From the IMG/VR virus record IMGVR_UViG_3300025011_000026: a stretch of DNA of 64,000 bases. One strand, given 5' to 3'. The notes beneath the pieces were generated by a model, which saw only the letters and a program-made list of their open reading frames with translations, made no database searches and was not told the DNA's origin. The position numbers and the translations under genes are program-made. Below are positions 3,835 through 58,557 of this stretch, in pieces (the stretch's first letter is position 1; the number at the start of each line of letters is the position of its first letter). The stretch is from a virus. Lineage: Duplodnaviria > Heunggongvirae > Uroviricota > Caudoviricetes.

Positions 3835-4131
3835 ATGGAAAAGAAAATTACACTTAAATATCTAACGCCATTAGAATTTATTGCTACATACACAAGAGAA
3901 GAATTTTTTAGAGGAGAACATGATAGTGAAAGAAAATGGTTAGAAGAGGATGCAGGAATGCCTATATTGAATATTATTGCAAAAATTACAACTGGCAATT
4001 ATGATCAACTTATTATGAAAACTTTTGATAAATTCGCTCCAAAAGTAGGATTTTTGTATTGTGGAGAACACGATATATTTCATGAGTATGTAAATTGTCC
4101 ATTCTGTCAGTTAGACATACGAGTTGATTAA
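3835..4131 (+). CDS. hypothetical protein
   Basis: SD GAGGAG upstream. C-terminal CGEH ... CPFC pair. Confidence 0.6.
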   Translation: MEKKITLKYLTPLEFIATYTREEFFRGEHDSERKWLEEDAGMPILNIIAKITTGNYDQLIMKTFDKFAPKVGFLYCGEHDIFHEYVNCPFCQLDIRVD

Positions 4132-14097: not shown

Positions 14098-15198
14098 ATG
14101 GCATTTAAAAAGAATACGGTTAAGGTTGAACTGGCATCATATCCACCATACATCATCATGGGCCAAAGAAAAATTGGAAAGACATCTTTATTTTATAAAT
14201 TGCTATTAACTCACTATAAAACATTTGATGCAGGACTTTTAATTTCTTTTGGAGATGAAGAAGGATATCATAGTTTAGATGGATTACAATATGAGCGTGT
14301 CGTAGAATGGGATGCTGATACAGACGAAGAAACTAATCTTCGTGGTTTTATTCAAGTAGTAGATGATTTGGTTGAAAATAGAAAAGAATATGGAATTAAA
14401 GCTATTTGTTTAGATACTCTTGATGAAATGATTTCTATTGGTACTACAGAAATGCTTAAACAACATAAAAGAGAAAAAGGTACTGTATGTAAATCTCTTA
14501 ATGATGCGTTTGGTGGCTTTCAGAAAGGAAGAGATAGACTTCTAGAATCTGTAAATCTTCAAATTACTCGTCTAAGAAATGCAGGATATGCCGTATTTAT
14601 CCTTTGTCATACCAAATTAAAGAATGTTAAAGATGTAATGACAGGAGAAGATTATGAGCAATTAACAAATAATCTTCGTGCTGATTTCTTTGGTAGTGTT
14701 GCAGATAAAGCACAAATGATAGTAAATATTACAATGGAACGTGAAATAGTTGAAGGAAAACAAGTTGGAGAAAAGAGAATGATGTATTTTAGAAACACTT
14801 CTATTGTTGATGCAGGAGGAAGATTTGTTGGATTGCCAGAAAAATTAGAACTATCTGCTGAAAACTTTATGTTAGCATTTGAAACAGGTGTTAAAAACTC
14901 AATGATTAACCCTGTATCTGATAAAGATATTGAAGATCAGAAAAAGGTAGAGGTAAAAGAAATTGATTCTGCTGCTGAAATTGCATGGAAAAAAGAGCAT
15001 AAATTGATTCAGGCAGAAATGAGCAAAGATGATAATTTAGCATTTGTAACTACAATTCAATTAAAATATCCTAAAGCAACAGAAGATATTAAAGAAATTG
15101 TAAAAGGAATTATGTCTGAATACAAAATTGAAAACTTTAAATCTCCAGAAGAACTTTCAACTGAAGGATTAAAGAAAATAGTAACAACTTTAGGTTAG
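14098..15198 (+). CDS. AAA_24 / Sak4-like RecA-fold ATPase
   Basis: Walker A MGQRKIGKTS, Walker B-like ICLDTLDE, and a later ILCHTK strand. This matches the typical layout of phage Sak4-type recombination ATPases. Confidence 0.6.
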   Translation: MAFKKNTVKVELASYPPYIIMGQRKIGKTSLFYKLLLTHYKTFDAGLLISFGDEEGYHSLDGLQYERVVEWDADTDEETNLRGFIQVVDDLVENRKEYGIKAICLDTLDEMISIGTTEMLKQHKREKGTVCKSLNDAFGGFQKGRDRLLESVNLQITRLRNAGYAVFILCHTKLKNVKDVMTGEDYEQLTNNLRADFFGSVADKAQMIVNITMEREIVEGKQVGEKRMMYFRNTSIVDAGGRFVGLPEKLELSAENFMLAFETGVKNSMINPVSDKDIEDQKKVEVKEIDSAAEIAWKKEHKLIQAEMSKDDNLAFVTTIQLKYPKATEDIKEIVKGIMSEYKIENFKSPEELSTEGLKKIVTTLG

Positions 15199-18241: not shown

Positions 18242-19332
18242 AACCAATAGTAAAAAAATTAATAGAAGAAGGTAATATAGTTTATAGTTTTAGTAAATTA
18301 GGTTCATTTAATCAATGTGAATATGGATATTATAATACATATATACTTAAAAATAGAGGCATTGATAATATTTATAGTGTTTGCGGAAGCAATATTCATA
18401 ATGATTTGGAGCAAATATATAATGGTAAAGAAGTAGATTTAACTAAATCATTAAATAATACACTTTCAGAATTAGACATGTTGGGAGTTAATTTTGCAAA
18501 CGATAAAATTAGAAACGCTTGGGTGGCTGACATGGAACATTTCACTAAAAACTTTAAAGCAAAAGAAGGATCATATATTACTGAGGAAGGGTTTATATTT
18601 GAAATAATGCCTAGAGTTTATATACAAGGGTATATTGATATGGTGGAGCATCATGATGAAAATAATATTTCAATTATTGATTTCAAAACAAGCAGTAAAT
18701 TTGATAAAAAGAAATTAATTGGAGCAGGAAGACAGTTGGTGTTATATGGAATAGCAAAACAAGATAAATATACGATTAATAAAATAGCATGGTATATGCT
18801 TAAATATCTTTATGTTTGTTCTAAATTGAAAAACGGCAATATTAATAAGAAAATGTGTAATAGAGGGAAATGGGTTAAGGAAATAGGGACTGATAAAAAT
18901 ATAAAAGATAAAAAAACTAATACATATAAATTAACCAAAAGTGCTTTAAAAAGAGAATTAGAATCTTTAAAATATAAAGATTTTGAGATCGAAATATTAA
19001 TTAACGAAGCAATAAATAATAATAGTTTATTAAATATGCCAAAAGAAATTCAAGATAAGTATTGGTTAGAGGATTGTATTCTTGAATATGAGTTTAATGA
19101 AGAAACAAAGAGCGAATTTATGGAATTTGTGAAATCTACACATGAGAAAATTATTAAGAAAGATGTTGAGAATGAAAACGATTGGAAACCTTTAGATATT
19201 GAGAATGATAACTTTTTCTGTAGTAATCTTTGTGGGTTACGTCAATCATGTCGATATTTATTAGATTTTTATGAGAGATTAAAGTTAGGTGTTACTAAGA
19301 AAGACTCTGAGTGGGAAGATTTATTTGGATAA
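18226..19332 (+). CDS. PD-(D/E)XK exonuclease, Cas4/RecB-like with Fe-S cysteines
   Basis: GYIDMVEHHDENNISIIDFKTS gives the D ... D-x-K core. One N-terminal Cys (FNQCEY) plus C-terminal FCSNLCGLRQSC fits the 1+3 cysteine cluster pattern. Confidence 0.65.
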   Translation: MARELEPIVKKLIEEGNIVYSFSKLGSFNQCEYGYYNTYILKNRGIDNIYSVCGSNIHNDLEQIYNGKEVDLTKSLNNTLSELDMLGVNFANDKIRNAWVADMEHFTKNFKAKEGSYITEEGFIFEIMPRVYIQGYIDMVEHHDENNISIIDFKTSSKFDKKKLIGAGRQLVLYGIAKQDKYTINKIAWYMLKYLYVCSKLKNGNINKKMCNRGKWVKEIGTDKNIKDKKTNTYKLTKSALKRELESLKYKDFEIEILINEAINNNSLLNMPKEIQDKYWLEDCILEYEFNEETKSEFMEFVKSTHEKIIKKDVENENDWKPLDIENDNFFCSNLCGLRQSCRYLLDFYERLKLGVTKKDSEWEDLFG

Positions 19333-19346
19333 GAAGGAGGACTATA

Positions 19347-20318
19347 ATGAACTGTAGTATTTGTAATATTGATGAAAAAGATTCACCAAAATTTTATTAT
19401 AGTGGAATTTATGGGAATAATCTATGCAATAAGCATTATCTTCAAATGAGAAGGCATGGCAAAATTACTGATGATACTCCAAATATAAAATTAAATTTAT
19501 GTGAAGTTTGTGGTCATACTGAAGGGTTAAAAAGATGTGGGTTAGACGGAGACTTCAAAGGTAAAACATTGTGTGGAAAACATTATTCTCAAATATTTGA
19601 AAAAGGAATAATATTTGATGAATTACCAACTCATAAAGATATATTAAGGGTTTGCGAAATTTGTGGGGAAGATAAATCTACTGACGTTATTTTTTGTGCT
19701 GAAACAAATCAAATGCTCTGTAGAAAACATTATAATCATATCCGTACATATGGCAATATATTGGAGAGAAGTATTCATGATAAAAATACATATGTTTTGA
19801 AAGAGGATGAATTTGGAGAATATGCAGAGATAATATTAAGGAATATAGAACACAATGAAATAGCAAGAACGACAATTGACATTGAAGAATTGGAAAGGGT
19901 ATTACAAAGAGTGTGGGGTCATAGCACATGGGGATATGCGACCAGTAAAACTCAAGAAAGTTTTACGATGTTACAAAATTTTATTTTAAATCACGTAGGA
20001 TTAATTGATCATATTGATAGAAATACATTAAATAATAGGAAATATAATTTAATGCCCTCGAATAAATCATTAAATGCATTAAATTGTGGATTAAGAAATA
20101 ACAACATAAGTGGTGTTACTGGAGTTTCTTTTAGCAAAACTGCCAACTCATGGAGATCGTATATAAATTGGGAGGGCAAAAGATTAGAATTAGGAAACAG
20201 AAAAAGCAAAGATGATGCGATTATATTAAGACTATCTAAAGAAAATGAGTTATTAGGAATATTATCACCTCAAAAACAATTATTTGAAGAATATGGGATA
20301 GAGGTGAGAATTATATGA
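19347..20318 (+). mobile_element. free-standing HNH-AP2 homing endonuclease gene
   Basis: Three tandem Zn-knuckle repeats (CxxC ... C-x-KHY-x3-R-x-G). HNH_3-like HIDRNTLNNRKYNL. AP2-like ISGVTGVSFSKTANSWRSYINWEGKRLELG. SD AAGGAGG. Its stop overlaps the Pol III alpha ATG. Confidence 0.7.
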
Positions 20319-23300
20319 TTAAATTTCAAAATTTTCACCGCCATTCCAGCGATAGTAACATCTTCACAGCCGATAGTGCAATGGTTGTAGAGGACTATGC
20401 TAAAAGAGCAGTTGAATTAGGTCATACTATTCTATCTTCTTGTGAGCATGGTTTTCAGGGCCGATATTATGAAGTTTATGAAATGGCAAAAAAATATAAT
20501 CTCAAATTCATTTTTGGAACAGAAGCATATTGGGTTAAAGATAGATTTGAGAAAGACAGAACTAATGGGCATATTTGCATATTTGCTAAATCAGAGATTG
20601 GCAGAAAATCCATTAATAGAGTTCTATCAGAAGCAAACATTGATGGGTATTACTATAAACCAAGAGTGGACATTGAATTATTATTATCTCTTCCTCAATC
20701 GGAAGTATTTATTAGTACAGCATGTATGGCTTTTTGGAAATATGATGATATAGAAGATATTATATGGAAATTGCATAAACATTTTGGAGATAATTTTTTT
20801 CTTGAAGTACAATATCATCATACAGATATTCAACGTGAAATTAACAAAAGAATCCTTAATCTAGGTTTAAATATTGTAATGGGTTGTGATTCTCATTATA
20901 TATATCCAGACCAAGCAAAAGGCAGAGATGATGTTTTAGAAGCAAGAGGGATAAGATATGAAGGAGAGGAGGGGTGGTTCTTAGACTACCCCGATGGGGA
21001 TACTGCATATCAGAGATTTGTAGATCAAGGGATATTAAATCATGAACAAATAATGAGAGCAATCAATAATACTAATATTTTTCTTGAATTTGAAGATATA
21101 GAATTTGATAAAAATATTAAATTGCCATCACTTTACCCCAATTTATCTTTAGAAGAAAAGAATAAGATATATACAACATTATTAACTGAAAAGTGGAAAG
21201 AGTTCAGTAAAGATATTGATCCAAGTAAACATGAATTATATCTTCAAGAAATTCAAAAAGAAGTTAATATTGTTAGGAATACTGGCATGGTAGATTATTT
21301 CTTAATGGATTATGAGATTGTAAAACAAGCAATTGCAGATGGAGGAATTATTACTAACAGTGGCCGAGGTTCAGGCGTGTCCTTTATTACTAATACATTA
21401 TTAGGATTTAGTAAAGTAGACAGAATTTCATCACCTGTTAAATTATATCCTGAGAGATTTATGAGTGAAACAAGAATATTACAAACTAAAAGTTTACCTG
21501 ATTTGGATTTGAATTGTGGTACTCCTGAAATATTTGTTCAAGCACAAGATAAAATTCTTGGTGAAGGTCATGCATATCCTATGATTGCATATGGAAAATT
21601 TAAAATTAAATCAGCATTTAAGTTATATGCAAAATCGCAAAGTATGCCATTTGATACTGCAAATGAAATCACTAATCAAATTGAAAAATATGAGAGAGAT
21701 TTAAAATATGCAGATGAAGATGATAAAGATTTAATTAATGTTTATGATTATGTAGAAGAAAAACATCATGAAATACTTAAAGGTTCAGAAAAATACATGG
21801 GCATTATTGCTTCTAAATCTGCTCATCCATGTGGATATCTTTTATATCAAGGCAATATTAAAGAAGATATAGGATTAATCAAATGTAAGAGTGAATCAAC
21901 AAAAAAAGAAGTAGTTACCACTGTAATTGATGGTTATGTGGCAGAGAAATATAAGTTCTTAAAAAATGACTTACTTAAAGTTGATGTTGTATTATTGATT
22001 GATAAGGTTTATAAAAGAATTGGAATTAAACCTCATACAGTGAATGAATTATTAACTATTATTAAAAATGATTCAGAGACATGGGGTATATATGCTAAAG
22101 GATTGACTATTGGTGTTAATCAAGTAGAAAAACCATCTACGACACAAAAAGCAATGAGGTACAAAGCTAGTAATATTTCAGAATTGACCGCACTAATTGC
22201 TGCCATTCGTCCTGGGTTTAAATCAATGTATCATACATTTGAAACTAGAAAACCATTTAACTATAATACTCCAAGTTTTGATAAATTAATTCAAACTGAA
22301 GAAATGCCATTTTCTTTTGTATTATATCAGGAGCAAACAATGGCAACATTGCAATATGCAGGATTCCCTATGGATGAGAGTTACGGCATATTAAAAGCTA
22401 TCAGTAAGAAAAAAGCAGAAATTATTATTCCTTTAAAGGAGAGATTTTTAGATGGATTTAGTAAAAAACTAGTATTAGATGAGAATATTACGTTAGAGTT
22501 AGCATTAGAGAAAAGTGAGGATATATGGCGAATTATAGCGGATTCTGTCAATTATTCGTTTAATGCGTCACATGCTTTAAGTTATGCCATTGATTCAGCT
22601 TATTGTGCATATTTAAAAGCACATTACCCTTATGAATTTTACGAAGTTATGTTACAGTCTTATTCAGATAAAGGCAATAAGGATAAAGTTGCATTATTTA
22701 AAAAAGAAATGATAGAGGGGTTTGGTATATCCGAAGGAGAATATACGTTTGGATTAGATAATACTAAATTCTTAGCAGATAAAGAAAATAAAACTATTTA
22801 TCCAGAGATGCTATCAATTAAATTCTTAAATAAAGAAATGGCTCATACTTTATTGAAATTATCAAAGAAAAAATATGATAGTTTTTATGAATTATTACGA
22901 AACATTAAATCAACTAAGGTTAATTCAAGACAATTAAATATTTTAATTAAATTAGGTTATTTTAGAGATTATGCTGATATCAAAAAAATACAAATATTTA
23001 ATGATTACTATGATTTATTAGGAGATTCTAAACAAATATCTAAAGAAAAAGCAATATTGTCTGAATTACCAATAGAATTAATTGAAAAATATTCAAGATC
23101 AACAGATAAAACTTATGTAGAATTAGATGTTGACAATATTTTATTGGGGTTATGGGATAATATACCTAATGAGTCATTAAATATTAGAGAACAAATACAA
23201 AATGAAATTGAATTATTAGGATATGCAAAATCAATAAATCCAAATATCTCTCCTGACTATGGAATTGTAGTTGAACTCAACACTAAATATTCTCCAATTC

Positions 23301-23527
23301 CTACAATTTATCGAATCAATGATGGAAGTATTGAAACTATTAAAACTGATACAAGAAAGTATAAAGCAAATCCATTTCAGCAATTTGATATGATTAAAAC
23401 AATCACTAAGGAACCGAGAAACAAAAAGAAATATATGGGTAAGAATGAGAAAGGTAAAGGGATATATGAAACATTAGAAGAGAAAGAAGACATATTAACC
23501 CAGTGGACGATAGTGACATTTGATTAA
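20315..23527 (+). CDS. dnaE: DNA polymerase III alpha subunit (DnaE-type)
   Basis: N-terminal PHP motif FHRHSSDS. Catalytic-core strings GRGSGVSFITNTLLGFSKVD and LPDLDLNC. 1070 aa. Confidence 0.85.
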   Translation: MIKFQNFHRHSSDSNIFTADSAMVVEDYAKRAVELGHTILSSCEHGFQGRYYEVYEMAKKYNLKFIFGTEAYWVKDRFEKDRTNGHICIFAKSEIGRKSINRVLSEANIDGYYYKPRVDIELLLSLPQSEVFISTACMAFWKYDDIEDIIWKLHKHFGDNFFLEVQYHHTDIQREINKRILNLGLNIVMGCDSHYIYPDQAKGRDDVLEARGIRYEGEEGWFLDYPDGDTAYQRFVDQGILNHEQIMRAINNTNIFLEFEDIEFDKNIKLPSLYPNLSLEEKNKIYTTLLTEKWKEFSKDIDPSKHELYLQEIQKEVNIVRNTGMVDYFLMDYEIVKQAIADGGIITNSGRGSGVSFITNTLLGFSKVDRISSPVKLYPERFMSETRILQTKSLPDLDLNCGTPEIFVQAQDKILGEGHAYPMIAYGKFKIKSAFKLYAKSQSMPFDTANEITNQIEKYERDLKYADEDDKDLINVYDYVEEKHHEILKGSEKYMGIIASKSAHPCGYLLYQGNIKEDIGLIKCKSESTKKEVVTTVIDGYVAEKYKFLKNDLLKVDVVLLIDKVYKRIGIKPHTVNELLTIIKNDSETWGIYAKGLTIGVNQVEKPSTTQKAMRYKASNISELTALIAAIRPGFKSMYHTFETRKPFNYNTPSFDKLIQTEEMPFSFVLYQEQTMATLQYAGFPMDESYGILKAISKKKAEIIIPLKERFLDGFSKKLVLDENITLELALEKSEDIWRIIADSVNYSFNASHALSYAIDSAYCAYLKAHYPYEFYEVMLQSYSDKGNKDKVALFKKEMIEGFGISEGEYTFGLDNTKFLADKENKTIYPEMLSIKFLNKEMAHTLLKLSKKKYDSFYELLRNIKSTKVNSRQLNILIKLGYFRDYADIKKIQIFNDYYDLLGDSKQISKEKAILSELPIELIEKYSRSTDKTYVELDVDNILLGLWDNIPNESLNIREQIQNEIELLGYAKSINPNISPDYGIVVELNTKYSPIPTIYRINDGSIETIKTDTRKYKANPFQQFDMIKTITKEPRNKKKYMGKNEKGKGIYETLEEKEDILTQWTIVTFD

Positions 23528-34868: not shown

Positions 34869-35019
34869 CAATTCAGTGGGGATAAATACATAAAGCAAAG
34901 AGGTGTTCATTCTGGAACAAAACAATCAAAATACATATAACCCAGATTCTCTTGATTCTCTAGATTCTTTAGGCATATTAGGGGGAGTCAGGGCAAAACC
35001 TGCAAGAAAGGATAAAATT

Positions 35020-35970
35020 ATGACCAAAGGTAAAATAGTGAATATTGGAGATAAATTTATAAGTAATAAAGGATATGAATACGAGGTTATAAATAAATTA
35101 AAAGGAGGAAAATATGAAGTTAGATTTAAAGATACAGGATATATAGCTAAGTCTGACAAAAAAGAAGTTTTAAATGGATGCATACGAGATTGGGAGGCTC
35201 CTTATGTCGTTGGTATAGGGATAGTTGGAAAAGAAATAGATCATCCCCAAAAGCATTATTTATATGATAGATGGAGAGATATGTTAAGACGGTGTTATGA
35301 TAATAGGTGTAATAGTTATTGTACATATGGAGCAGTAGGAGTAACAGTTGATGAAAAATGGTTTAGATTTATTAATTACGTAAATGATATCGAAACTAAG
35401 GAAAATTTTGAAAAATTAAAGATAAAAAATTGTGGTTGGGAAATAGATAAAGATTTAAAAGGGAATGGTACAAAAATATATTCTAATGCAACAACTTCAA
35501 TAATAAGAGAAGAAGAAAATATTAAAGAAAGAAATATCAGGCAAGATAATCCAGCAATAAAGCTTAAAATAAAAGTCATGCAATTTACAACAGAAGGCAA
35601 TTTTATTAAAACGCATGAGAGTATTACTGAAGCTATGAAGTTCATCGGTGTTATAAATGGTAGTGGCTCATGTATAATTGATTGTTGTAAAAGTAGAGCA
35701 AAGACAGCTTATGGGTTTGCATGGATGTATGAAAAAGATTTTATAGATTTTGAATCAGCTCGTATAAAAATAATACATAGATTAGAATATATTCCAGATA
35801 AGTATCGTAAAATAGTTTTGAAAATGGACAATGACTATAACATTATAGATGAATTTAAAGGGTTAAAAAGAGCATCTGAAAGTTTAGGTGCTACTGTTGG
35901 TGCAATAGCAAATGCCATAACAAGAGGGAACAAATGTAAAGGATTTATAGTGAGATACAAGGAGGAATAA
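35020..35970 (+). mobile_element. free-standing homing endonuclease-like gene with two NUMOD-type HTH modules
   Basis: YLYDRWRDMLRRCYD ... YGAVGVTVDEKW core, common in phage HNH/AP2-type endonucleases. Two C-terminal modules (ITEAMKFIG ... KTAYGFAWMY and LKRASESLG ... KCKGFIVRY). It has its own promoter and lies immediately 5' of the topoisomerase gene. Confidence 0.55.
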
Positions 35971-35973
35971 AAT

Positions 35974-37965
35974 ATGAGCGACAAAATAACCGTACTATCA
36001 TACAAACAAAAGGCCAGAGAAAGAATTAATGTCTTTCATGGTTCAGCAAATCATTTTTTGAACATGGTGAAAGAATTGATCGCAAATAGTTTCGACATAT
36101 TTAGCAAAGACAAACTAAATACTATTAAAATTATATTACATAATGAAAATAAAATTGAATATATTGATTCTGGAATAGGCATTCCAATTGAGGGTATTGC
36201 TAGTGATGGTAGTCCTAGTTATCAAGCTATATTTGAAAGAGATTTTGCAGGAAGTAGATACGGCAATACAGAGCAAACAGCAGGTCAAAATGGCATATTT
36301 TTGTATACCCTAACAATGACATCAGAAGATATTGAATACTTTATAGCTAGACCAGATGGAAATTTATACAATATAAAATATCATAAAGGAGATATGGTAT
36401 CAGATTTAAAAATTATAGGTAAGGAGGAAACTACTTATTCAAGAATGATATTTTCACTTGATGGAGAAGTATGGAATAATCCTAAATTTATATTTCAAGA
36501 AATATGTGATATAGCACAAACACAGTCTTCATTATGTAATGTAAAAATTACAATAGAAGACAAAGAGAATAACTTAACAAATGAATTTTACTATGAAAAT
36601 GGGATATTAGATTACTTTAATGACACAACTCAAAACAAAGATATTGTTACAGATCAAATTAGGATTTCCCAAATTAAAAAACCAACAATAGAGAAGGTGA
36701 TCAAAGGAATCCCTAAAAAAATTGAAGATATTGTTTCGATTGATTTTATATTTTCTTATTCAAATGATTCTAATGAAGACTTTAAAAAAGAGTTTTTAAA
36801 TACTGCTGATTTATTGTTGCATGGAACAATTCAAGATGGTATATATGCTGGATTAAAAAATTGTATCAACAAATGGTTAAAAGATAATGGAAAATATGCT
36901 AAAAATGAAAAACAAATATCTATTGATGATATTTCCACAGGACTAAACTATATTTGTAACGTATTTAGTTATTATGTAGAATATGATAATCAAATTAAGC
37001 AGAAAACATCAGCAAAGCACTATAAAACTGTTTTACAAGAAACAATTGAAGAATTTATGGAAATATATTTTATTGAAAATAAAGAGGAAAGTGAGAAATT
37101 AGCCAATGCAATCCTCTTAAACAAAAGAATCCGTGAAAAATCTGAAATCAATAGGAAAAATATCAAGAAAGAATTAGAAGAGAAAATAACTAATCAAGTT
37201 AATAGACCTGCTAAATTTGTACCATGTAGAAGCAAAAATCCTTTAGAAATAAAATTCACATTGATTGAAGGTGATTCTTCCTTAAATAGTGTCAAATTAG
37301 CTCGTAATGCTTATGATACTTGTATTTTACCATTGAAAGGGAAACCGATAAATCCTTTTAAATGTAAAATAGATGCTTTATTAAATAATGAAGAAATAAA
37401 ATCTATTTTTAAAATATTGGGTTGTGGTATGGAATATAAAGGTAAATCTATAAAAGGAGTTCCTAAATTTAATATTGACAACTTACAAGTTGATAGAGTA
37501 CAGATTGCGACAGATTTTGACAATGATGGTTATCACATACAAGCATTATTGATTGGTATATTTTATACTTTATCACCTGAACTATTAAAACAGGGTAAAA
37601 TTTATATTCTTTATACTCCTTTATACGTAATCAAAACAAAAAAGCAGACAGAATACAAAAATGAAATCACAGATACTTTATTAGCTTATAGTGAAATGGA
37701 AAGGAATGAAATTGTAAATAAACTTCATGATGAAGATATTTCATTCAAAGAAACAAGGTTTAAAGGATTAGGAGGGTTACCTGTTTCTATCATGTCAAAA
37801 GCATTAAGTGAAAACAGTATGATTATGAAACAAATAACTATGGATGACGTTGAAGAAAGTAAAAAATGGTTAGAATTATTCCTATCAGAAGAAAAATTAA
37901 AAGATAGAAAAGAATATATTGAAACTCATGGTAATAAATATTTCGACTATTCTTTGTTTGAATAA
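35974..37965 (+). CDS. type II DNA topoisomerase, ATPase/Toprim subunit (GyrB/ParE/T4 gp39-like)
   Basis: GHKL motifs ELIANSFD and DSGIGIP. Toprim EGDSS, PLKGKPINP and IATDFDNDGYHI. Confidence 0.8.
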   Translation: MSDKITVLSYKQKARERINVFHGSANHFLNMVKELIANSFDIFSKDKLNTIKIILHNENKIEYIDSGIGIPIEGIASDGSPSYQAIFERDFAGSRYGNTEQTAGQNGIFLYTLTMTSEDIEYFIARPDGNLYNIKYHKGDMVSDLKIIGKEETTYSRMIFSLDGEVWNNPKFIFQEICDIAQTQSSLCNVKITIEDKENNLTNEFYYENGILDYFNDTTQNKDIVTDQIRISQIKKPTIEKVIKGIPKKIEDIVSIDFIFSYSNDSNEDFKKEFLNTADLLLHGTIQDGIYAGLKNCINKWLKDNGKYAKNEKQISIDDISTGLNYICNVFSYYVEYDNQIKQKTSAKHYKTVLQETIEEFMEIYFIENKEESEKLANAILLNKRIREKSEINRKNIKKELEEKITNQVNRPAKFVPCRSKNPLEIKFTLIEGDSSLNSVKLARNAYDTCILPLKGKPINPFKCKIDALLNNEEIKSIFKILGCGMEYKGKSIKGVPKFNIDNLQVDRVQIATDFDNDGYHIQALLIGIFYTLSPELLKQGKIYILYTPLYVIKTKKQTEYKNEITDTLLAYSEMERNEIVNKLHDEDISFKETRFKGLGGLPVSIMSKALSENSMIMKQITMDDVEESKKWLELFLSEEKLKDRKEYIETHGNKYFDYSLFE

Positions 37966-40275: not shown

Positions 40276-40902
40276 ATGAAAATTATTAAAGCAAGCGTAG
40301 AAGTATTAGACCAAATTAATGGAGATGAAATCCTTAAACATATTGAAATAGTCGGACGAACTTGTTACAAAAGTGAAGATAAAATAACTCCCGACTCGTC
40401 ACGTAAATTCGTTGCAGACCTAATTAAAAGGAGTCATGAGGCTATGATTGAGCACTTCAATATCTCTGTTAAGTTTATTTGCGATAGAGGTGTTACACAT
40501 GAAATTGTAAGACATAGAATAGCTTCTTATGCTCAAGAAAGTACAAGATATTGTAATTATAATCAAGAGAAATTTGGTAAAGAAATTACAGTAATTAAAC
40601 CTTTATTTTGGGATGATGGTTCTAAATTATATCAATCTTGGAGAATAGGATGCCTACAAGCTGAGATTACATATTTTGAATTATTAGCGTTAGGAGCAAG
40701 TCCTCAAGAAGCACGATCAGTATTACCTAATTCCCTTAAAACCGAAATTGTTGTTACTATGAATCTTAGAGAATTGAGGCATTTCTTTAGATTAAGAACT
40801 GCTAAAACAGCTCATCCTCAAATGCGCGAAGTTGCTATTATGTTATTAGAAGAATTAAAAAATAAAATTCCTGTAATTTTTGATGACATTGAGGTGAAAT
40901 AA
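40276..40902 (+). CDS. thyX: flavin-dependent thymidylate synthase
   Basis: ThyX signature RHRIASYAQESTRY. 208 aa. Confidence 0.85.
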   Translation: MKIIKASVEVLDQINGDEILKHIEIVGRTCYKSEDKITPDSSRKFVADLIKRSHEAMIEHFNISVKFICDRGVTHEIVRHRIASYAQESTRYCNYNQEKFGKEITVIKPLFWDDGSKLYQSWRIGCLQAEITYFELLALGASPQEARSVLPNSLKTEIVVTMNLRELRHFFRLRTAKTAHPQMREVAIMLLEELKNKIPVIFDDIEVK

Positions 40903-40903
40903 T

Positions 40904-42463
40904 TTGAATAAATTAAAAAATAAAATTGTTGTAGTTAGTGGTTTTAGTGCTTGTGTTGATGGGGATACAGAATATTTCAATGGTACGAGATGGATAAAAA
41001 TAAAAGATTATTCTGAAGGGGATGAGGTTTTACAATATCATTCAGATGGGACTACAAATTTAACATATCCACAAAAATATATCAAAGAACCTTGTAAAGA
41101 AATGTGGTATTTTAGAACGAAACATGGATTAAATCAATGTTTAACAGATGAACATGAAGTTTATTACATTACATCAAAAAATAATTTATATCATAAGACG
41201 TTTAAGGAGATAAGAGAGCAACATAATTCTAATAAAAATGGTTTTAGTGGTAAATTCATAACTACTTTCAATTATGGAGGGAAAGGAATTGAATTAACTG
41301 ACAATGAGATAAAATTAATGTGTGCTGTAATTTGTGATTCTTCTTTTCCAAACGGTACAAATAAATGTTTTTTTAATCTTAAAAAAGATAGAAAAAAAAA
41401 TGCTTTAAGAAAATTACTTAAAGAAATGAATTACGAATGGGAGGAAAAAGAATATGACTCAATGAAGGGGTATACAAGATTTTTCTTAAATGCTCCAAGA
41501 AAAGAAAAGGAATTTTCCCCATACTGGTATAATTGTAATCAGCACCAACTCAAAATAATTTGTGACAACATTATTCAATGGGATGGTAGTACATCCAGTG
41601 ATAGTATAAGATTTTTCTCTACTTCAAAAGATACTGCTGATTTTATTCAATTTGCTTTTTCGGCTTGTGGAATAAGAGCGAATTTATTAGAAAATGATAG
41701 GAGGGGAAGAATAAAGTATAATGAGACGACAAATAAAGAATATATTACTAAATCTATTGATTATGTGATAAATATTTGCAATAGTAAATTATTATCATTA
41801 ATAAGAGATAAAAATAAAAAAATCGAATTTAGCAAATACATAACTAAAGATGGATTTAAATATTGCTTTACAGTACCTAGTGGAATTTTAGTTTTAAGAA
41901 GAGATGGTTGTATATTTATAACTGGCAATTGTGGTAAAGACTCAATTCAAAAATACATATCTGATAATTACAATTACCAAATGGTGATATCACATTCATC
42001 TCGTCCTATGCGTCCAAATGAAGATGAAGGTAATCCATATTATTTCATTACAAGAAAACAATTTGAAGATATGATTAAACAAAATGAATTTATTGAGTGT
42101 AGGAAATATAATACACTTGTAAATAATGTGAATGATGTTTGGTATTATGGAGTTAGTAAAAATTCTATTGACTTAACAAAAAATAATTACATAGTAGTTC
42201 TGGATATTTTGGGATTAATAGAGATTAAAAAATATTTCAAAGATAATGTAATTTCATTCTTTATTGATGTTGATGAACCAATTAGAAAACAACGTGCTAT
42301 TAATCGACAAGGATTTGACCCCACAGAATGGGATAGGCGTTATCAAGATGATATTAAAAGCTTTTCTCAAGAAGTAATAAATAAAGAAGTTGATTATATT
42401 ATTGAGAATTATGATTTTGATAAATGTGTAAGTGAAATTCTTAGTAAGATTGGAGAGATTTAA
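40904..42463 (+). CDS. guanylate-kinase-like (d)NMP kinase interrupted by an intein
   Basis: Exteins join to VVVSGFSA|CGKDS (P-loop GxxxxGK). Downstream HSSRPMRPNEDEGNPYYFITRKQFEDMIKQNEFIE matches the guanylate kinase TTRxPRxGExDGxDYxF core. Confidence 0.7.
   Translation: MNKLKNKIVVVSGFSACVDGDTEYFNGTRWIKIKDYSEGDEVLQYHSDGTTNLTYPQKYIKEPCKEMWYFRTKHGLNQCLTDEHEVYYITSKNNLYHKTFKEIREQHNSNKNGFSGKFITTFNYGGKGIELTDNEIKLMCAVICDSSFPNGTNKCFFNLKKDRKKNALRKLLKEMNYEWEEKEYDSMKGYTRFFLNAPRKEKEFSPYWYNCNQHQLKIICDNIIQWDGSTSSDSIRFFSTSKDTADFIQFAFSACGIRANLLENDRRGRIKYNETTNKEYITKSIDYVINICNSKLLSLIRDKNKKIEFSKYITKDGFKYCFTVPSGILVLRRDGCIFITGNCGKDSIQKYISDNYNYQMVISHSSRPMRPNEDEGNPYYFITRKQFEDMIKQNEFIECRKYNTLVNNVNDVWYYGVSKNSIDLTKNNYIVVLDILGLIEIKKYFKDNVISFFIDVDEPIRKQRAINRQGFDPTEWDRRYQDDIKSFSQEVINKEVDYIIENYDFDKCVSEILSKIGEI
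40952..41929 (+). mobile_element. intein (326 aa) with LAGLIDADG-like endonuclease domain
   Basis: Starts with Cys1 (CVDGDT, block A). Block B is CLTDEH. Central KLMCAVICDSSF and FIQFAFSACGIRANL look like LAGLIDADG motifs. It ends ...FITGN, followed by +1 Cys. Residues 17-342 of the host ORF. Confidence 0.65.
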
Positions 42464-43042
42464 TTGATAGATAAAACTAAGTTATTTTTGGACTGTGATA
42501 ATTGTCTCACAGCAAGCACTAGAAGTTTTTGCGAATCTTACAACATTCTATACAAATATCATAAAGATTTTAAACCTGCAAATTGGGAACTAGTTAATGA
42601 GTGGAATATGCAAGATCAGTGTCCTATTCTTAAAACAGATTCAGATGTATTAGAAATATTTGAAACTCCAATATTCTTCAAATTACTCAAACTCATAAAC
42701 GACAATACATACGAAATAGCCAGAGAATTAAATGAAAAATATCATATAATTATAGCGTCAATTGGAACTCCGATTAATTTATCTAGGAAAGCAATGTATT
42801 TGCAAGAAACTTTGCCATTTATTAAAGACTATATTCTAATGTATAATAATGGGATAAAAATGAATAAAGAGATTATCCAAATGAATTATCCTGAATCAAT
42901 TTTTATAGATGACCATATATCAAATTTAATTTCAAGTAATGCAATAAATAAATATGTGTTTGGTAAGGATTATCCTTGGAGTAAAACAAATGATTATGAT
43001 AGATTATGGAATTGGACAGATGTTGCCAATAAATTGTTGTAA
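42464..43042 (+). CDS. HAD-family 5'(3')-deoxyribonucleotidase-like protein (NT5C type)
   Basis: N-terminal HAD motif I LFLDCDNCLT (DxDx). Late acidic FIDDH motif. Confidence 0.45.
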   Translation: MIDKTKLFLDCDNCLTASTRSFCESYNILYKYHKDFKPANWELVNEWNMQDQCPILKTDSDVLEIFETPIFFKLLKLINDNTYEIARELNEKYHIIIASIGTPINLSRKAMYLQETLPFIKDYILMYNNGIKMNKEIIQMNYPESIFIDDHISNLISSNAINKYVFGKDYPWSKTNDYDRLWNWTDVANKLL

Positions 43043-52548: not shown

Positions 52549-52896
52549 ATGTTTAATAATGAGATGTTTGAAACTAATCAAATCATTGAAATGAAAGACG
52601 AAATATTTTATGGACTTACAGGAAAACAAACTATTTATTTATTAGGTGGAATAGTGCTTAGTTTATCTGTATTTAATACTGCATTACCTATTATTGCAAA
52701 ACTATTCATTCTACCAAATATAGGTATTCCTACTGCAATTTTAACTAAAACTGATGTAGATCAAGGGATAGTTTCTTTCTTTAAATTCAAATGGAGAGGA
52801 GTGACAAAACAAAATGTTACAATACAATCTTTACCCAAAAGCAAATTATCTTTTAGTAACAAAAGAAGAGCAGACGCTACTTCGATCAAAGTTTAA
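52549..52896 (+). CDS. PrgI/VirB3-like small membrane protein
   Basis: SD AAGGAGG then ATG 52549. KDEIFYGLTGKQTIYLLGGIVLSLSVF matches the conserved (F)GLTxRQ-TM start of PrgI-family proteins. It lies directly upstream of the VirB4-like ATPase. Confidence 0.45.
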   Translation: MFNNEMFETNQIIEMKDEIFYGLTGKQTIYLLGGIVLSLSVFNTALPIIAKLFILPNIGIPTAILTKTDVDQGIVSFFKFKWRGVTKQNVTIQSLPKSKLSFSNKRRADATSIKV

Positions 52897-54322
52897 GTAT
52901 TTATTAAATTCTCTAAATGAACCATTTAAGATTATTTGTAAAACTGACTTAAATCAATTAAACAAAGAAATACAAGTTAATGAGTCAAGTTATTCTCTTA
53001 CTACTAATGCAAATATTTACGAAAATTTGCGTAATTCTGGAATAGACTATACTCAAAATCAATTACTAATTGCAAGTAATATTCAAATAAAGGAGTATAG
53101 AAAGTACATTGGTGTTACTGAAAACAATGTAAAATATTTTGCTAAATCAATCAAGGTTATCCAATTTCCACAAATGCTTTCTACTGGATTCATAAACAAC
53201 TTAATGATTTCTGACACTGAAATTGCTCTTACAATCTTTCCATTGCCACAAGAAGAGGCTGTAAAGGCAGTAAAAAAGAGAATTGATACTACTGAAGCAA
53301 ATGCTAATTGGAAGGCCGTAAAGAACCCTAATCAAGAGTTTTATGTAGAAGATGAAATTGTATCAAAACTTCAAAAGACTATGGTTGATCTTATGGGTAA
53401 TGAGGAAAAACTTTGTATGGTTGGATTATATATTTTAATTAAAGGACAAACACTTGAACAATTAGAAACAAAATCAAAACAAATATCAATGCTTTTAGAT
53501 GGAATGCAAATCAGATTCAAATTCGCTAATTGTGAACATTTTAATTGTTTCAAGAATTTTAGATCATATAAAGAAATTGACTATGTAAAGGAGTTAAAAG
53601 TGTTTTTAACAAGTGTGATTAGTAATTTTTATCCATTTGTTAGATATGTATCAGGTGATGGAATTATAATTGGATATGATTATCAAAATTATCAATTAAT
53701 TAAGATTAATTTTGCAGAGCAATTCAATCTGTCATGGTTCATTTTTGGAATTTCAGGAAGTGGAAAATCATTTGCTGTGAAATCAATTGTCAAGAAAATA
53801 TCTAGTCATAAGAAGATTTATATTCTTGATATTACTGGTGAATACGCCAAATTAAAATCAAAGAATATTATCATTATATCTAAGGATTTTGAGAAATTCC
53901 TACTGTACACCGATTTTAAAGATTGCATGATTGTAATTGATGAAGCATGGGATATTTTAAAAACTGATGCAGTTATTAAAAGAGTGGTAGCAATTGCCAA
54001 AGGATACAGAAAACGAGGAGTAGGTGTTTTAGTCTGCACACAAAACATTGCTGATACAAGTAAAGAGGATATTGAATTAATTATTAAAAACTGTGCTAAT
54101 ACTTTAATTCTTCACTTAACCTCCTTAGAACTTCAACATATTAGTGAATACATGAATATACCATCTCATATTGTCGATTATCTTTCTAGGATTGAAAAAG
54201 GACAAGGATGGATGACCATAGGAACAAAGAAATATGCTTTTAGCCCCATATTTAGTAATGAAGAATATTTATTATTTAATACCAATTATGAGGAAATGAA
54301 AGGGGTTGGTTATAATGGGTGA
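52814..54322 (+). CDS. VirB4-like T4SS ATPase (short form)
   Basis: Walker A FGISGSGKSF, Walker B MIVIDEAW. SD GGAGAGGAG 11 nt upstream. It overlaps the PrgI-like gene by 83 nt. Confidence 0.65.
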   Translation: MLQYNLYPKANYLLVTKEEQTLLRSKFKYLLNSLNEPFKIICKTDLNQLNKEIQVNESSYSLTTNANIYENLRNSGIDYTQNQLLIASNIQIKEYRKYIGVTENNVKYFAKSIKVIQFPQMLSTGFINNLMISDTEIALTIFPLPQEEAVKAVKKRIDTTEANANWKAVKNPNQEFYVEDEIVSKLQKTMVDLMGNEEKLCMVGLYILIKGQTLEQLETKSKQISMLLDGMQIRFKFANCEHFNCFKNFRSYKEIDYVKELKVFLTSVISNFYPFVRYVSGDGIIIGYDYQNYQLIKINFAEQFNLSWFIFGISGSGKSFAVKSIVKKISSHKKIYILDITGEYAKLKSKNIIIISKDFEKFLLYTDFKDCMIVIDEAWDILKTDAVIKRVVAIAKGYRKRGVGVLVCTQNIADTSKEDIELIIKNCANTLILHLTSLELQHISEYMNIPSHIVDYLSRIEKGQGWMTIGTKKYAFSPIFSNEEYLLFNTNYEEMKGVGYNG

Positions 54323-57006: not shown

Positions 57007-58557
57007 ATGAAAATTCTATTTTCTGATAAAGTTAAGGATATTAAATTGGAAGGAGATATACATGATATGAGTAGGAAAAGTAAGGAGAGATTTACACAGA
57101 TGGATATTGGTTTGGTTAATGCAGTAAAGGAAGAGGTGATGAACGGAATGAGTGATAATCACTCAGAAGAAGATCAAGAAATGATTCAGGAGATGGAAAG
57201 CATCACTCGTGAAGAAACTGCCGTTGGTTATGAGAGTGCAAATAGTTTTGAAGAGAATAGTAAAAGTGGAGATGTTATTAATTTGGGTGAGAAATCTATG
57301 CCAGCATTTGGTAGTTTAAGTGAAAAGACTAAAATAGAAGAGTCAAATGGGGATGATAAAGAGCAAATGTCAACTGAAGAATTTAATGAAACTAGAAATG
57401 AAGTTTTAGATAGTAAGAGTGAGTTCGAAAAGAAAAAGGAATTAAGAGAAGCAAATAAATTGAAACGAGATATGAGAAGTAAATTAAAGCAATTAGACAG
57501 TGAAAATGATGATAAATCATGGGAACTAAACAATGTCCAAATCGTCTTGCGTGATGGTAAGCCTTATAAATATTTGGTATCACTATCTTGTATGCAGTTG
57601 GCTGAGTGGTATATCTCTAAAAAGCTGATTTACGATTTTGGCGTACAAAGAGGCAGTAAAACCAATAAAAAAGGCGAGGAAGTACCTATACTTTTTCTAA
57701 AACATTGCAATGATATCAAAACTGCAATTTTAGATGGGTCAATTCACGGGGGAACATTGAGTCTAAATTTGCCTACTGACAATAATACACAACTTTTTTA
57801 TGACGAAGACAATATGACTTTAAGTTCTGACGTTCCCTTAACCATAAATGATGGTTTTCACCGCATATATGCAAGTTATTTGTGGTATAAGGAATTTGTT
57901 AAACCAAATAGTACATGTAAAAGTCCTGAAACGTTCTATTTTCCAGCCAATATTGAGCATATTAGTAGACAAGCGAGTTGTGATTTATTCAAAGAATATG
58001 CGGTTATGGGGAAATCTATTAGTAAGAACAGGATTAGTGTCCATAATGTATTTGATAAAAATTATGAAATCACACAGAGGGTTGCAAAATCATCTCAACT
58101 TCGTGGACGTATAGAAATGATTTCTAATTCAATTAAAAGAAGTAGTCCTTGCATTTTTACTTATGGTACAATATTAAATGGAGTATCTGAATTTAAGGTT
58201 ATTACTCAGGGGAAAGAAGAAGAAGTTGGTAATTTCATCATTGAGTTCTTAAATGAATTAATCGAATTATTTCCTAATCTAATGGGTCATGTTGATTCAG
58301 AAACAAGAGCGATAGAAAAACAAAAGAGTTTTGTACTCGAAAAAATGTTTCAAAATTCTTATTTTGTGTTAGCTAGTCAATTACAAGGTAAAGATGATTG
58401 GAAGAGTAGATTGGCTAAATTGACACAAAACAATTTCCTATCAAGAAGTAATCCAATGTGGGGCTTTTGCCTTAGAGAAGGCGAAAAAATAGTGAATTCT
58501 TCAAAGGTGCAAAAAACAATTACTGAGAAAATTATTGACTATGTGATGGCAAACTAA
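57007..58557 (+). CDS. ParB/Srx-fold DGQHR-type (DndB-like) protein with acidic disordered N-terminus
   Basis: FGVQRG ... LTINDGFHRIYASYLW resembles the QR ... DGQHR signature of DndB/DGQHR-domain proteins. The first ~170 aa are Glu/Asp/Ser/Lys-rich. Confidence 0.4.
   Translation: MKILFSDKVKDIKLEGDIHDMSRKSKERFTQMDIGLVNAVKEEVMNGMSDNHSEEDQEMIQEMESITREETAVGYESANSFEENSKSGDVINLGEKSMPAFGSLSEKTKIEESNGDDKEQMSTEEFNETRNEVLDSKSEFEKKKELREANKLKRDMRSKLKQLDSENDDKSWELNNVQIVLRDGKPYKYLVSLSCMQLAEWYISKKLIYDFGVQRGSKTNKKGEEVPILFLKHCNDIKTAILDGSIHGGTLSLNLPTDNNTQLFYDEDNMTLSSDVPLTINDGFHRIYASYLWYKEFVKPNSTCKSPETFYFPANIEHISRQASCDLFKEYAVMGKSISKNRISVHNVFDKNYEITQRVAKSSQLRGRIEMISNSIKRSSPCIFTYGTILNGVSEFKVITQGKEEEVGNFIIEFLNELIELFPNLMGHVDSETRAIEKQKSFVLEKMFQNSYFVLASQLQGKDDWKSRLAKLTQNNFLSRSNPMWGFCLREGEKIVNSSKVQKTITEKIIDYVMAN

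Follow-up and report, generated by a model that had tools for sequence, protein, structure and literature searches.

A LAGLIDADG intein in the P-loop of a phage guanylate-kinase-like protein and its family with two conserved cysteines

An interrupted ATP-binding loop

The stretch of phage DNA analyzed here (the window: 64,000 nucleotides of the IMG/VR record IMGVR_UViG_3300025011_000026, Caudoviricetes) encodes a guanylate-kinase-like protein whose Walker A motif, or P-loop, is split by 326 residues. What is this insert, and how can a kinase gene tolerate it? An earlier note, made from the nucleotide letters, had proposed an intein. We regard it as settled, from the fold of the insert, its absence from orthologous kinases and its presence in unrelated hosts, that it is a genuine intein bearing a homing endonuclease. 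The explanation that we favor is more specific: a mobile, splicing-competent intein, combining a HINT splicing domain with a LAGLIDADG endonuclease, homed into the Walker A codons of a guanylate-kinase-family nucleoside monophosphate (NMP) kinase of a large phage. We put the probability of this explanation at about 0.85. The precursor open reading frame (ORF) comprises the following parts.

40904..42463, + strand: precursor ORF, 519 aa (N-extein, intein and C-extein), with a TTG start one base past the thyX stop
40904..40951, + strand: N-extein, 16 aa, MNKLKNKIVVVSGFSA, with the first Walker A half, G-F-S-A
40952..41929, + strand: intein, 326 aa, with a double-motif LAGLIDADG homing endonuclease interrupting its HINT splicing domain (AlphaFold2, Foldseek, same insert in unrelated hosts)
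41930..42463, + strand: C-extein, 177 aa plus stop, with the +1 Cys (41930-41932), then G-K-D-S as the second Walker A half and the rest of the guanylate-kinase fold (Pfam Guanylate_kin)

The insert is 978 nt long and in-frame. As had been stated in the earlier note, positions 40952-41929 correspond to residues 17-342 of the ORF, and their deletion joins VVVSGFSA to CGKDS, restoring the P-loop in a protein of 193 aa. After this in silico removal, the Walker A motif is contiguous, GFSA↓CGKD (motif GxxxxGK; arrows mark the insertion point), and the match to Guanylate_kin (PF00625) runs unbroken over profile positions 2-175 with 78 bits (gathering cut-off 25.2), compared to 66 bits and positions 13-175 only in the unspliced ORF. 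The kinase also matches PHROG 1815 'guanylate kinase' (E = 5e-36). We consider the description of the host as guanylate-kinase-like, in the sense of family membership, justified by these matches, while the narrower label of a deoxynucleoside monophosphate (dNMP) kinase is what we infer from the neighboring genes, thyX upstream and an NT5C-like nucleotidase downstream. Altogether, 6 metagenome contigs, which come from at least 3 groundwater samples, encode a protein identical to that of the 519-aa ORF.

Fold, profiles and empty sites

The AlphaFold2 model of the insert, built with 52 homologues in the alignment, has a predicted local distance difference test score (pLDDT) of 96.3 and a predicted template modeling score (pTM) of 0.92. 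Its top Foldseek matches in PDB are the inteins TliVMA (E = 2e-14), PI-SceI, PhoVMA, PI-PfuI and PI-TkoII, with E values from 2e-14 to 2e-7, followed by the free LAGLIDADG enzymes I-DmoI (~1e-5) and I-Tsp061I in the range from 1e-5 to 1e-4. Moreover, full-length homologues of the insert, 30-60% identical and with E values down to 1e-119, are found inside many unrelated proteins. The fold match and these homologues go far beyond what chance would give, and bear out the proposed intein with a LAGLIDADG endonuclease.

Existing family models and single-sequence searches do not decide the matter. The Pfam model LAGLIDADG_3 gives a sub-threshold match to the insert (E = 0.005, 17.6 bits), and a single-sequence phmmer search of PDB sequences yielded no intein, only a chance match to an ABC-binding protein. 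With the sequence profile of the family, the only PDB intein retrieved was AceL NrdHF (E = 2e-5). Structures of canonical class 3 DnaB inteins, which carry the Trp-Cys-Thr (WCT) triplet, were not retrieved by this profile at E ≤ 10, and therefore we do not claim that direct sequence similarity ties the family to classical class 3.

The search with the spliced kinase retrieved at least 100 orthologues (112-206 aa, at most 77% identical), and the insert is present in 0 of the 100 retrieved; the possibility, raised in the earlier note, that it is a domain normal to orthologous kinases was checked in this way. The P-loops of the orthologues mostly read GFSASGKD, compared to GFSACGKD in the spliced window kinase. 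In addition, there is a syntenic intein-free relative with the gene order gyrB-gyrA-thyX-kinase-NT5C, 79-84% nucleotide identity and a 189-aa kinase. Blastn homology to the intein-free locus L004 restarts at window position 41931, 2 nt past the intein end. The empty site reads GGTTTTAGTGCC AGT GGCAAGGAC, and the occupied site reads GGTTTTAGTGCT, intein, TGTGGTAAAGAC; the empty allele of L004 (nt ~3990-4060) contains GGTTTTAGTGCCAGTGGCAAGGAC. Both alleles are held by assembly ERZ27254726, the occupied one in L001 and the empty one in L006. Thus, the unbroken Pfam match after splicing, the fold, the distribution and the empty sites agree in placing the insert in the P-loop of a guanylate-kinase-family kinase.

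Anatomy of the intein

The intein can be divided into the following regions.

40952..41269, + strand: N-terminal splicing region, approximately residues 1-106, with Cys1 (40952-40954), block B T65-D-E-H68 (41144-41155) and, at B:12, Val70 and not Trp
41270..41854, + strand: LAGLIDADG homing-endonuclease domain with two motifs, limits approximate
41315-41341, + strand: motif 1, LMCAVICDS, residues 122-130, with Asp129 (41336-41338)
41561-41587, + strand: motif 2, CDNIIQWDG, residues 204-212, with Asp211 (41582-41584)
41855..41929, + strand: C-terminal splicing region, blocks F and G, FKYCFTVPSGILVLRRDGCIFITGN, with Cys305 (F:4; 41864-41866), Arg316 (41897-41899) and Thr324-Gly325-Asn326 (41921-41929)

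All items of the feature list in the earlier note are present: the start CVDGDT (block A), TDEH of block B, two LAGLIDADG-like motifs with Asp129 and Asp211, and the end at Asn326, preceded by Gly325 and followed by the +1 Cys. In the model, helices 117-129 and 197-211 carry the two LAGLIDADG motifs. Block B constitutes a TxxH motif, which aligns with S65/H68 of AceL NrdHF. What the list missed is the more unusual feature, a conserved F:4 cysteine alongside Cys1. This residue, Cys305, lies in the context FKYC305FTVPSG, at a position commonly occupied by Asp in inteins. Both the block F His and the penultimate His are absent from the insert.

A large family of P-loop inteins

The size of the family was estimated by phmmer with the single intein sequence against 1.84 billion cluster representatives, which yielded 2240 clusters at E ≤ 1e-3, 1070 at E ≤ 1e-10 and 557 at E ≤ 1e-30. 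Relatives of the intein occur on 366 IMG/VR viral contigs. The 48 distinct viral hosts include 28 RecD-like superfamily 1 (SF1) helicases and 8 DnaB-like proteins, the remainder being clamp loader, FtsK, VapE and AAA proteins. Overall, the enzymes hosting homologues include T4-gp1-type dNMP kinases, MetK, class II ribonucleotide reductase (RNR), RtcB and methyltransferase-like proteins, and the ATPases and other hosts include terminase, PhoH, DnaC/IstB-like proteins, DnaB, RecD-like helicases, ABC and KaiC-like proteins, clamp loader and FtsK. The hosts in cultured phages are RecD, primase-helicase, RtcB, TerL, PhoH, NAMPT and TOPRIM primase.

P-loop proteins comprise the great majority of the hosts, and their junction reads GxxG↓[C/S]GK[S/T/D]. 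In the reconstructed DNA target, conservation is found mainly at ...GG↓TG-GG-AA..., a pattern that fits an endonuclease tolerant of many P-loop genes. The nearest inteins, 55-60% identical, reside in T4 gp1-type dNMP kinases (Pfam DNMK) and, in one case, in another guanylate-kinase-like protein, while their exteins are 28% identical to the window kinase or unrelated to it outside the P-loop. This indicates horizontal transfer between non-orthologous nucleotide kinases that share a CGKD Walker A motif. The sporadic distribution of the family and an intein identity far above the extein identity (56-60% compared to 28% or no relation) may be taken as indirect signs of mobility. The GC content of the intein (27.1%) is close to that of the exteins (25.9%), so that composition gives no sign of a recent foreign origin.

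Some members occupy sites outside P-loops. Sites of this kind with a [C/S]G context were seen in P0054-P0058, P0070/P0071, P0061/P0067 and L088 (mycobacteriophage Switzer gp56). The non-P-loop junctions are methyltransferase motif I-like (EPxC↓CGxG) or lie in MetK (↓SGKDSTKVDRS), class II RNR (↓CNQF) and TOPRIM primase (AEGE↓CD). One of the three scanned methyltransferase-like exteins gave a match, a weak one, to Methyltransf_23.

P-loop inteins in phages are well known (PMC4760082, PMC5050341). The earlier note knew of none in a guanylate or dNMP kinase, and our literature search likewise found no paper on such an intein, although metagenomes contain many dNMP-kinase genes with an intein of this kind.

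Conserved residues and the penultimate glycine

Residues were counted in 200 distinct full-length family members. The positions involved in splicing are strongly conserved: Cys1 in 195 of 200, His68 in 198, Cys305 in 198, Arg316 in all 200, Thr324 in 192 and Asn326 in 196. The same holds for the endonuclease, with Asp129 retained in 195, Asp211 in 194 and Lys148 in 199 members. B:7 is Ser or Thr in 177 members and Cys in 21; B:12 is V, I, F, C, L or M, with no Trp found. At +1, Cys is found in 113 members, Ser in 74 and Thr in 9.

The earlier note described the penultimate residue as a His-to-Gly change, and asked on this ground whether splicing is efficient or conditional. The penultimate residue is Gly in 184 of the 200 members and His in 5, and therefore Gly is ancestral to the family rather than a lesion. 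Moreover, the two relatives with a T-G-N end that have been studied, the RDF and AceL NrdHF inteins, splice fast, and both are harmed by a Gly-to-His replacement. Given this norm and the rapid splicing of the relatives, efficient splicing would be expected, by analogy, of the window intein as well.

Cys1 is replaced by Gly in 5 of the 200 members, and four of these five are degenerate extein-less copies that also lack the Asn or the F:4 Cys. P0010, P0044, P0303 and P0317 (329-362 aa) are extein-less intein relatives with Gly at position 1, and the terminal Asn is lost in all four; P0317, additionally, has no block F Cys. They look like intein-derived endonucleases that are free-standing or decaying. 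P0019 (480 aa), whose host is close to the DNMK-like kinase of P0018, has Gly at position 1 and is otherwise intact, with the end ...ICITGN↓CVGKD; P0018 has Cys1. Gly1 of P0019 could reflect a sequencing error or a dead allele, or else hint that Cys1 can be dispensed with.

Splicing class

The features expected of a class 1 intein that the insert shows are the HINT fold, the insertion absent from orthologues, Cys1, the TxxH motif of block B, and Asn followed by C at +1. Of the typical but non-obligatory features of this class, the penultimate His (G:6) is Gly325 and the block F Asp (F:4) is Cys305; functional inteins lacking both have been documented (PMC7891396, PMC5050341). By the published definition, class 3 inteins have no N-terminal nucleophile and carry the WCT triplet (PMC2807308). 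The window intein has Cys305 at F:4 and Thr324 at G:5, as in class 3, but its position 1 is Cys and its B:12 is Val70 rather than Trp. Since Cys1 is kept and the triplet is incomplete, it is not a class 3 intein by this definition, and, as Cys1 is under strong constraint, class 1 chemistry is most likely.

Profile-profile alignment complicates this assignment. The family is homologous both to the Cys1-bearing RDF intein, treated as class 1, and to AceL NrdHF, a proven class 3 intein with Ala1. In hhalign, C305, T324, G325 and N326 fall on C124, T144, G145 and N146 of AceL NrdHF, and C305...T-G-N coincides with VWC...LTGN of the RDF intein. With both cysteines conserved, and with this homology to a proven class 3 intein, sequence alone does not assign the first nucleophile. 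When AceL NrdHF was used as a query for close relatives with Cys1 in a set of 5.8 billion proteins, only the PDB construct and the natural C-terminal fragment were found. Class 3-like inteins starting with Ser1 or Cys1 were reportedly tested by Tori and Perler in 2011.

Proposed course of events

The 519-aa precursor would be translated with a split ATP-binding loop and would presumably be inactive. Excision of the intein and ligation of GFSA to CGKD would then produce the 193-aa kinase and a free 326-aa endonuclease, which may cut intein-free alleles such as GGTTTTAGTGCC/AGTGGCAAGGAC, with subsequent repair copying the intein in. In the class 1 order, which is the most likely one, Cys1 would form the first thioester, Cys+1 would take over the N-extein, and Asn326 would cyclize. 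Thr65 and His68 may activate the N-terminal junction, and the Thr324-Gly325-Asn326 end would be expected to work without a penultimate His, like in the studied relatives. Cys305 in the active site could be a helper or a second nucleophile. As the closest relatives reside in T4-gp1-type dNMP kinases, the intein probably entered the window gene through ectopic homing, from one kinase P-loop into another with a common CGKD coding sequence.

Alternative explanations

The splicing route could differ from the one above. In a class 3 or dual pathway, Cys305 would attack the N-terminal junction and pass the N-extein from a branched thioester to Cys+1, leaving Cys1 dispensable or as a back-up. This is a possible though doubtful alternative. 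Cys305 and the T-G-N end align with those of AceL NrdHF, where C124 is the proven nucleophile (PMC7891396); the F:4 Cys and the G:5 Thr are conserved in 198 and 192 of 200 members, respectively; and the block F and penultimate His residues are missing, as in AceL NrdHF. In addition, WCT-triplet inteins starting with Ser1 or Cys1 are known (PMC2807308), and class 3 inteins have been described as needing no N-terminal nucleophile (PMC5222942). On the other hand, the lack of such a nucleophile is what defines class 3, and conservation of Cys1 in 195 of 200 members is unexpected for a dispensable residue. The family has no Trp at B:12, although neither does AceL NrdHF, and its B:7 Ser/Thr is as in the class 1 TxxH motif. 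The +1 residue is Cys in 113 members, whereas it is almost always Ser or Thr in class 3 inteins (PMC2807308), and the homologous RDF intein was handled as class 1 by Kelley et al. (PMC5050341). It is unlikely, but conceivable, that the approximately 1000 relatives constitute 'two-cysteine' inteins, in which Cys1 and Cys305 both act as nucleophiles, either in a relay or as alternative class 1 and class 3 routes; if so, this would speak against class 3 having arisen independently by convergence. With three cysteines predicted at the catalytic center, splicing might also be gated by redox state, so that a disulfide among Cys1, Cys305 and Cys+1 would delay maturation of the kinase under oxidizing conditions until reducing ones return. 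Disulfide-bonded precursor conformers were indeed seen in the G316H mutant of the RDF intein (PMC5050341), and a mycobacterial DnaB intein is described as an oxidative-stress sensor (PMC6195587). Still, redox gating appears rather improbable, as 83 of 200 members have Ser or Thr at +1, so that a disulfide with Cys+1 cannot be general to the family, and the parental RDF intein splices fully with no visible trap (PMC5050341).

Several observations weigh against the explanation that we favor, a splicing-competent intein in a guanylate-kinase-family kinase. The Pfam models, including Intein_splicing, and the NCBIfam intein models do not match the insert, and hence the case for an intein is built on its fold, on profile-profile alignment and on its distribution. 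The kinase misses the cut-off of the bacterial Gmk equivalog (NCBIfam TIGR03263; 90.8 vs. 160.45 bits). Residue -1 is Ala in the window, while it is Gly in most of the family. The invariant Arg316 is only a candidate for the residue that would stand in for the two absent His (block F and penultimate) during Asn cyclization, and the RDF and AceL NrdHF inteins do not conserve it. The two absent His residues, the failure of the Pfam models and Ala at -1 could be read as signs of a decayed intein, with splicing or endonuclease activity lost and the kinase gene effectively a pseudogene. We consider decay very improbable, since the ORF is intact, an identical protein was found in several samples, and every key catalytic position checked, both endonuclease Asp included, holds the family-conserved residue. 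The seemingly defective features are the family norm and are functional in the studied relatives, and truly degenerate copies look different (Gly1, terminal Asn lost, no exteins). The absence of a direct Pfam intein match, and nothing else, would speak for a non-intein accessory domain normal to the kinase family. The chance of this is negligible: all 100 retrieved orthologues lack the insert and the syntenic site is empty, in its fold the insert matches an intein carrying a LAGLIDADG endonuclease, and dozens of unrelated proteins contain it, invariably running from Cys to an Asn that is followed by Cys, Ser or Thr.

Genomic context

The window represents a module for replication and nucleotide metabolism, and the phage-like genome to which it belongs, known from groundwater metagenomes, is large and AT-rich (29% GC). 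Its genes encode Pol III alpha, class II RNR, GyrB/GyrA, DnaB, primase, a Sak4-like protein, an exonuclease and two HNH endonucleases. No GenBank phage was matched by the locus in a megablast search, and tblastn with the intein found no second copy in the remaining window. The genes flanking the precursor are as follows.

40276..40902, + strand: flavin-dependent thymidylate synthase ThyX, directly upstream (Pfam Thy1 on an identical locus)
42464..43042, + strand: 5'(3')-deoxyribonucleotidase-like protein, directly downstream (NT5C family in orthologous loci; weak NT5C match on an orthologue)

A Pfam scan of the window copy of the nucleotidase-like gene (42464..43042) gave no match. In the comparison with the intein-free relative, thyX (40276-40902) has no blastn match to L004 3248-4000, although the flanking gyrB/gyrA and kinase/NT5C genes are 79-84% identical, and the ThyX ORF of the relative is longer (250-276 aa vs. 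208 aa in the window). This suggests that the thyX allele has been replaced beside the intein site. An antisense 55-aa ORF at 41761-41928 was unsupported and was ignored.

Two free-standing HNH endonuclease ORFs with PHROG matches, 19311-20318 (+) and 34903-35970 (+), lie directly upstream of Pol III alpha (20315-23527) and gyrB (35974-37965), respectively, and are probably further homing elements of the same replication module. The Sak4-like ATPase (366 aa, 14098-15198, +) also matches positions 384-665 of 702, the C-terminal part, of PHROG 19299 'terminase large subunit'. The intein weakly matches the N-terminal part of the same profile, and this PHROG probably derives from terminases that contain inteins. 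Genes for a HerA/DUF87-like ATPase (52814-54322, +) and a DndB-like protein (57007-58557, +) are located downstream of the replication module.

Implications

The locus is predicted to yield, as its true products, a 193-aa kinase and a free endonuclease rather than the 519-aa 'guanylate kinase' that annotation would report. Current Pfam and NCBIfam intein models miss the entire family, which exceeds 1000 sequence clusters. The list of P-loop hosts is extended by small nucleotide-monophosphate kinases of the guanylate-kinase and T4-gp1 types, and one Walker A position (GxxG↓[C/S]GK) is reused by the family across dozens of unrelated proteins. The occupied and empty alleles constitute a natural pair from the same assembly, suited to tests of homing. 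As judged from the alignments, the point of real interest is a very large family that combines Cys1 with a class 3-type Cys-Thr-Gly-Asn module. Such inteins provide a compact test case of whether Cys1 with a class 3-type block F Cys means class 1, class 3 or both, which bears on the disputed origin of class 3, and fast-splicing T-G-N inteins are useful for protein engineering.

Comparison with known systems

The RDF intein of mycobacteriophage Bethlehem gp51 (317 aa; counterpart Switzer gp53) is homologous over its full length, including the endonuclease domain (hhalign against the family profile: 98%, E = 1.5e-13, 284 columns, ~20% identity). It is likewise phage-borne and shares Cys1, the TxxH block B, the F:4 Cys in C-x-x-V-P-x-G and the T-G-N end (...LTGN↓S). 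Unlike the window intein, it sits in a metallophosphoesterase motif (HEGNHD↓C...N↓S) and not in a P-loop, and its +1 residue is Ser. In E. coli it splices completely, while the G316H mutant takes more than 5 h for ~50% splicing, and its LAGLIDADG endonuclease is toxic to this host (Kelley et al. 2016, PMC5050341).

AceL NrdHF (PDB 6zgq; hhalign against the family: 95%, E = 2e-8) is a class 3 intein of an atypical kind, found on a metagenome contig that is phage-like. Cys124 is its proven branch-point nucleophile, and Thr144 hydrogen-bonds His68 (Hoffmann et al. 2021, PMC7891396); splicing takes minutes, and G145H abolishes activity (PMC7891396). Similar to the window intein, it has the B:7 Ser/Thr and B:10 His (residues 65 and 68 in both), a residue other than Trp at B:12, the F:4 Cys with x-x-V-P after it and a T-G-N end (...VTGN↓S), and it likewise lacks the block F His. 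The differences are Ala1, the +1 Ser, an RNR beta subunit as the host, and a naturally split architecture with a GIY-YIG gene between the halves and no internal LAGLIDADG domain. Moreover, Arg69 of AceL NrdHF makes up for the missing His, whereas residue 69 of the window intein is Glu.

The same two-domain architecture is found in the solved inteins TliVMA (7qsu), PI-SceI (1vde), PhoVMA (7qst) and PI-PfuI (1dq3), with Foldseek E values from 2e-14 to 1e-10, template modeling (TM) scores of 0.54-0.64 (normalized by query length) and 9-14% identity. Solved endonuclease-bearing class 1 inteins have Cys1, Asn, Cys+1 and a penultimate His, and they are not known to be inserted in Walker A. The yeast VMA1 intein presumably does not share the Walker A position of the window intein either: its recognition site, which we take to be YVG↓CGERGNEM, lies outside the P-loop.

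The Walker A motif of P-loop NTPases is likewise the target of the mycobacteriophage terminase inteins TerL1-a/TerL1-b and of the DnaB, MCM and RFC inteins (PMC5050341, PMC4760082). Like the window family, these are spread by phages, with related inteins in non-orthologous P-loop hosts. However, the 'classic' P-loop site is GK↓T, between Lys and Ser/Thr (PMC5050341), whereas the window family inserts two residues upstream, at GxxG↓[C/S]GK, and its host in the window is a small nucleotide kinase rather than one of the replication and packaging ATPases that carry the known P-loop inteins.

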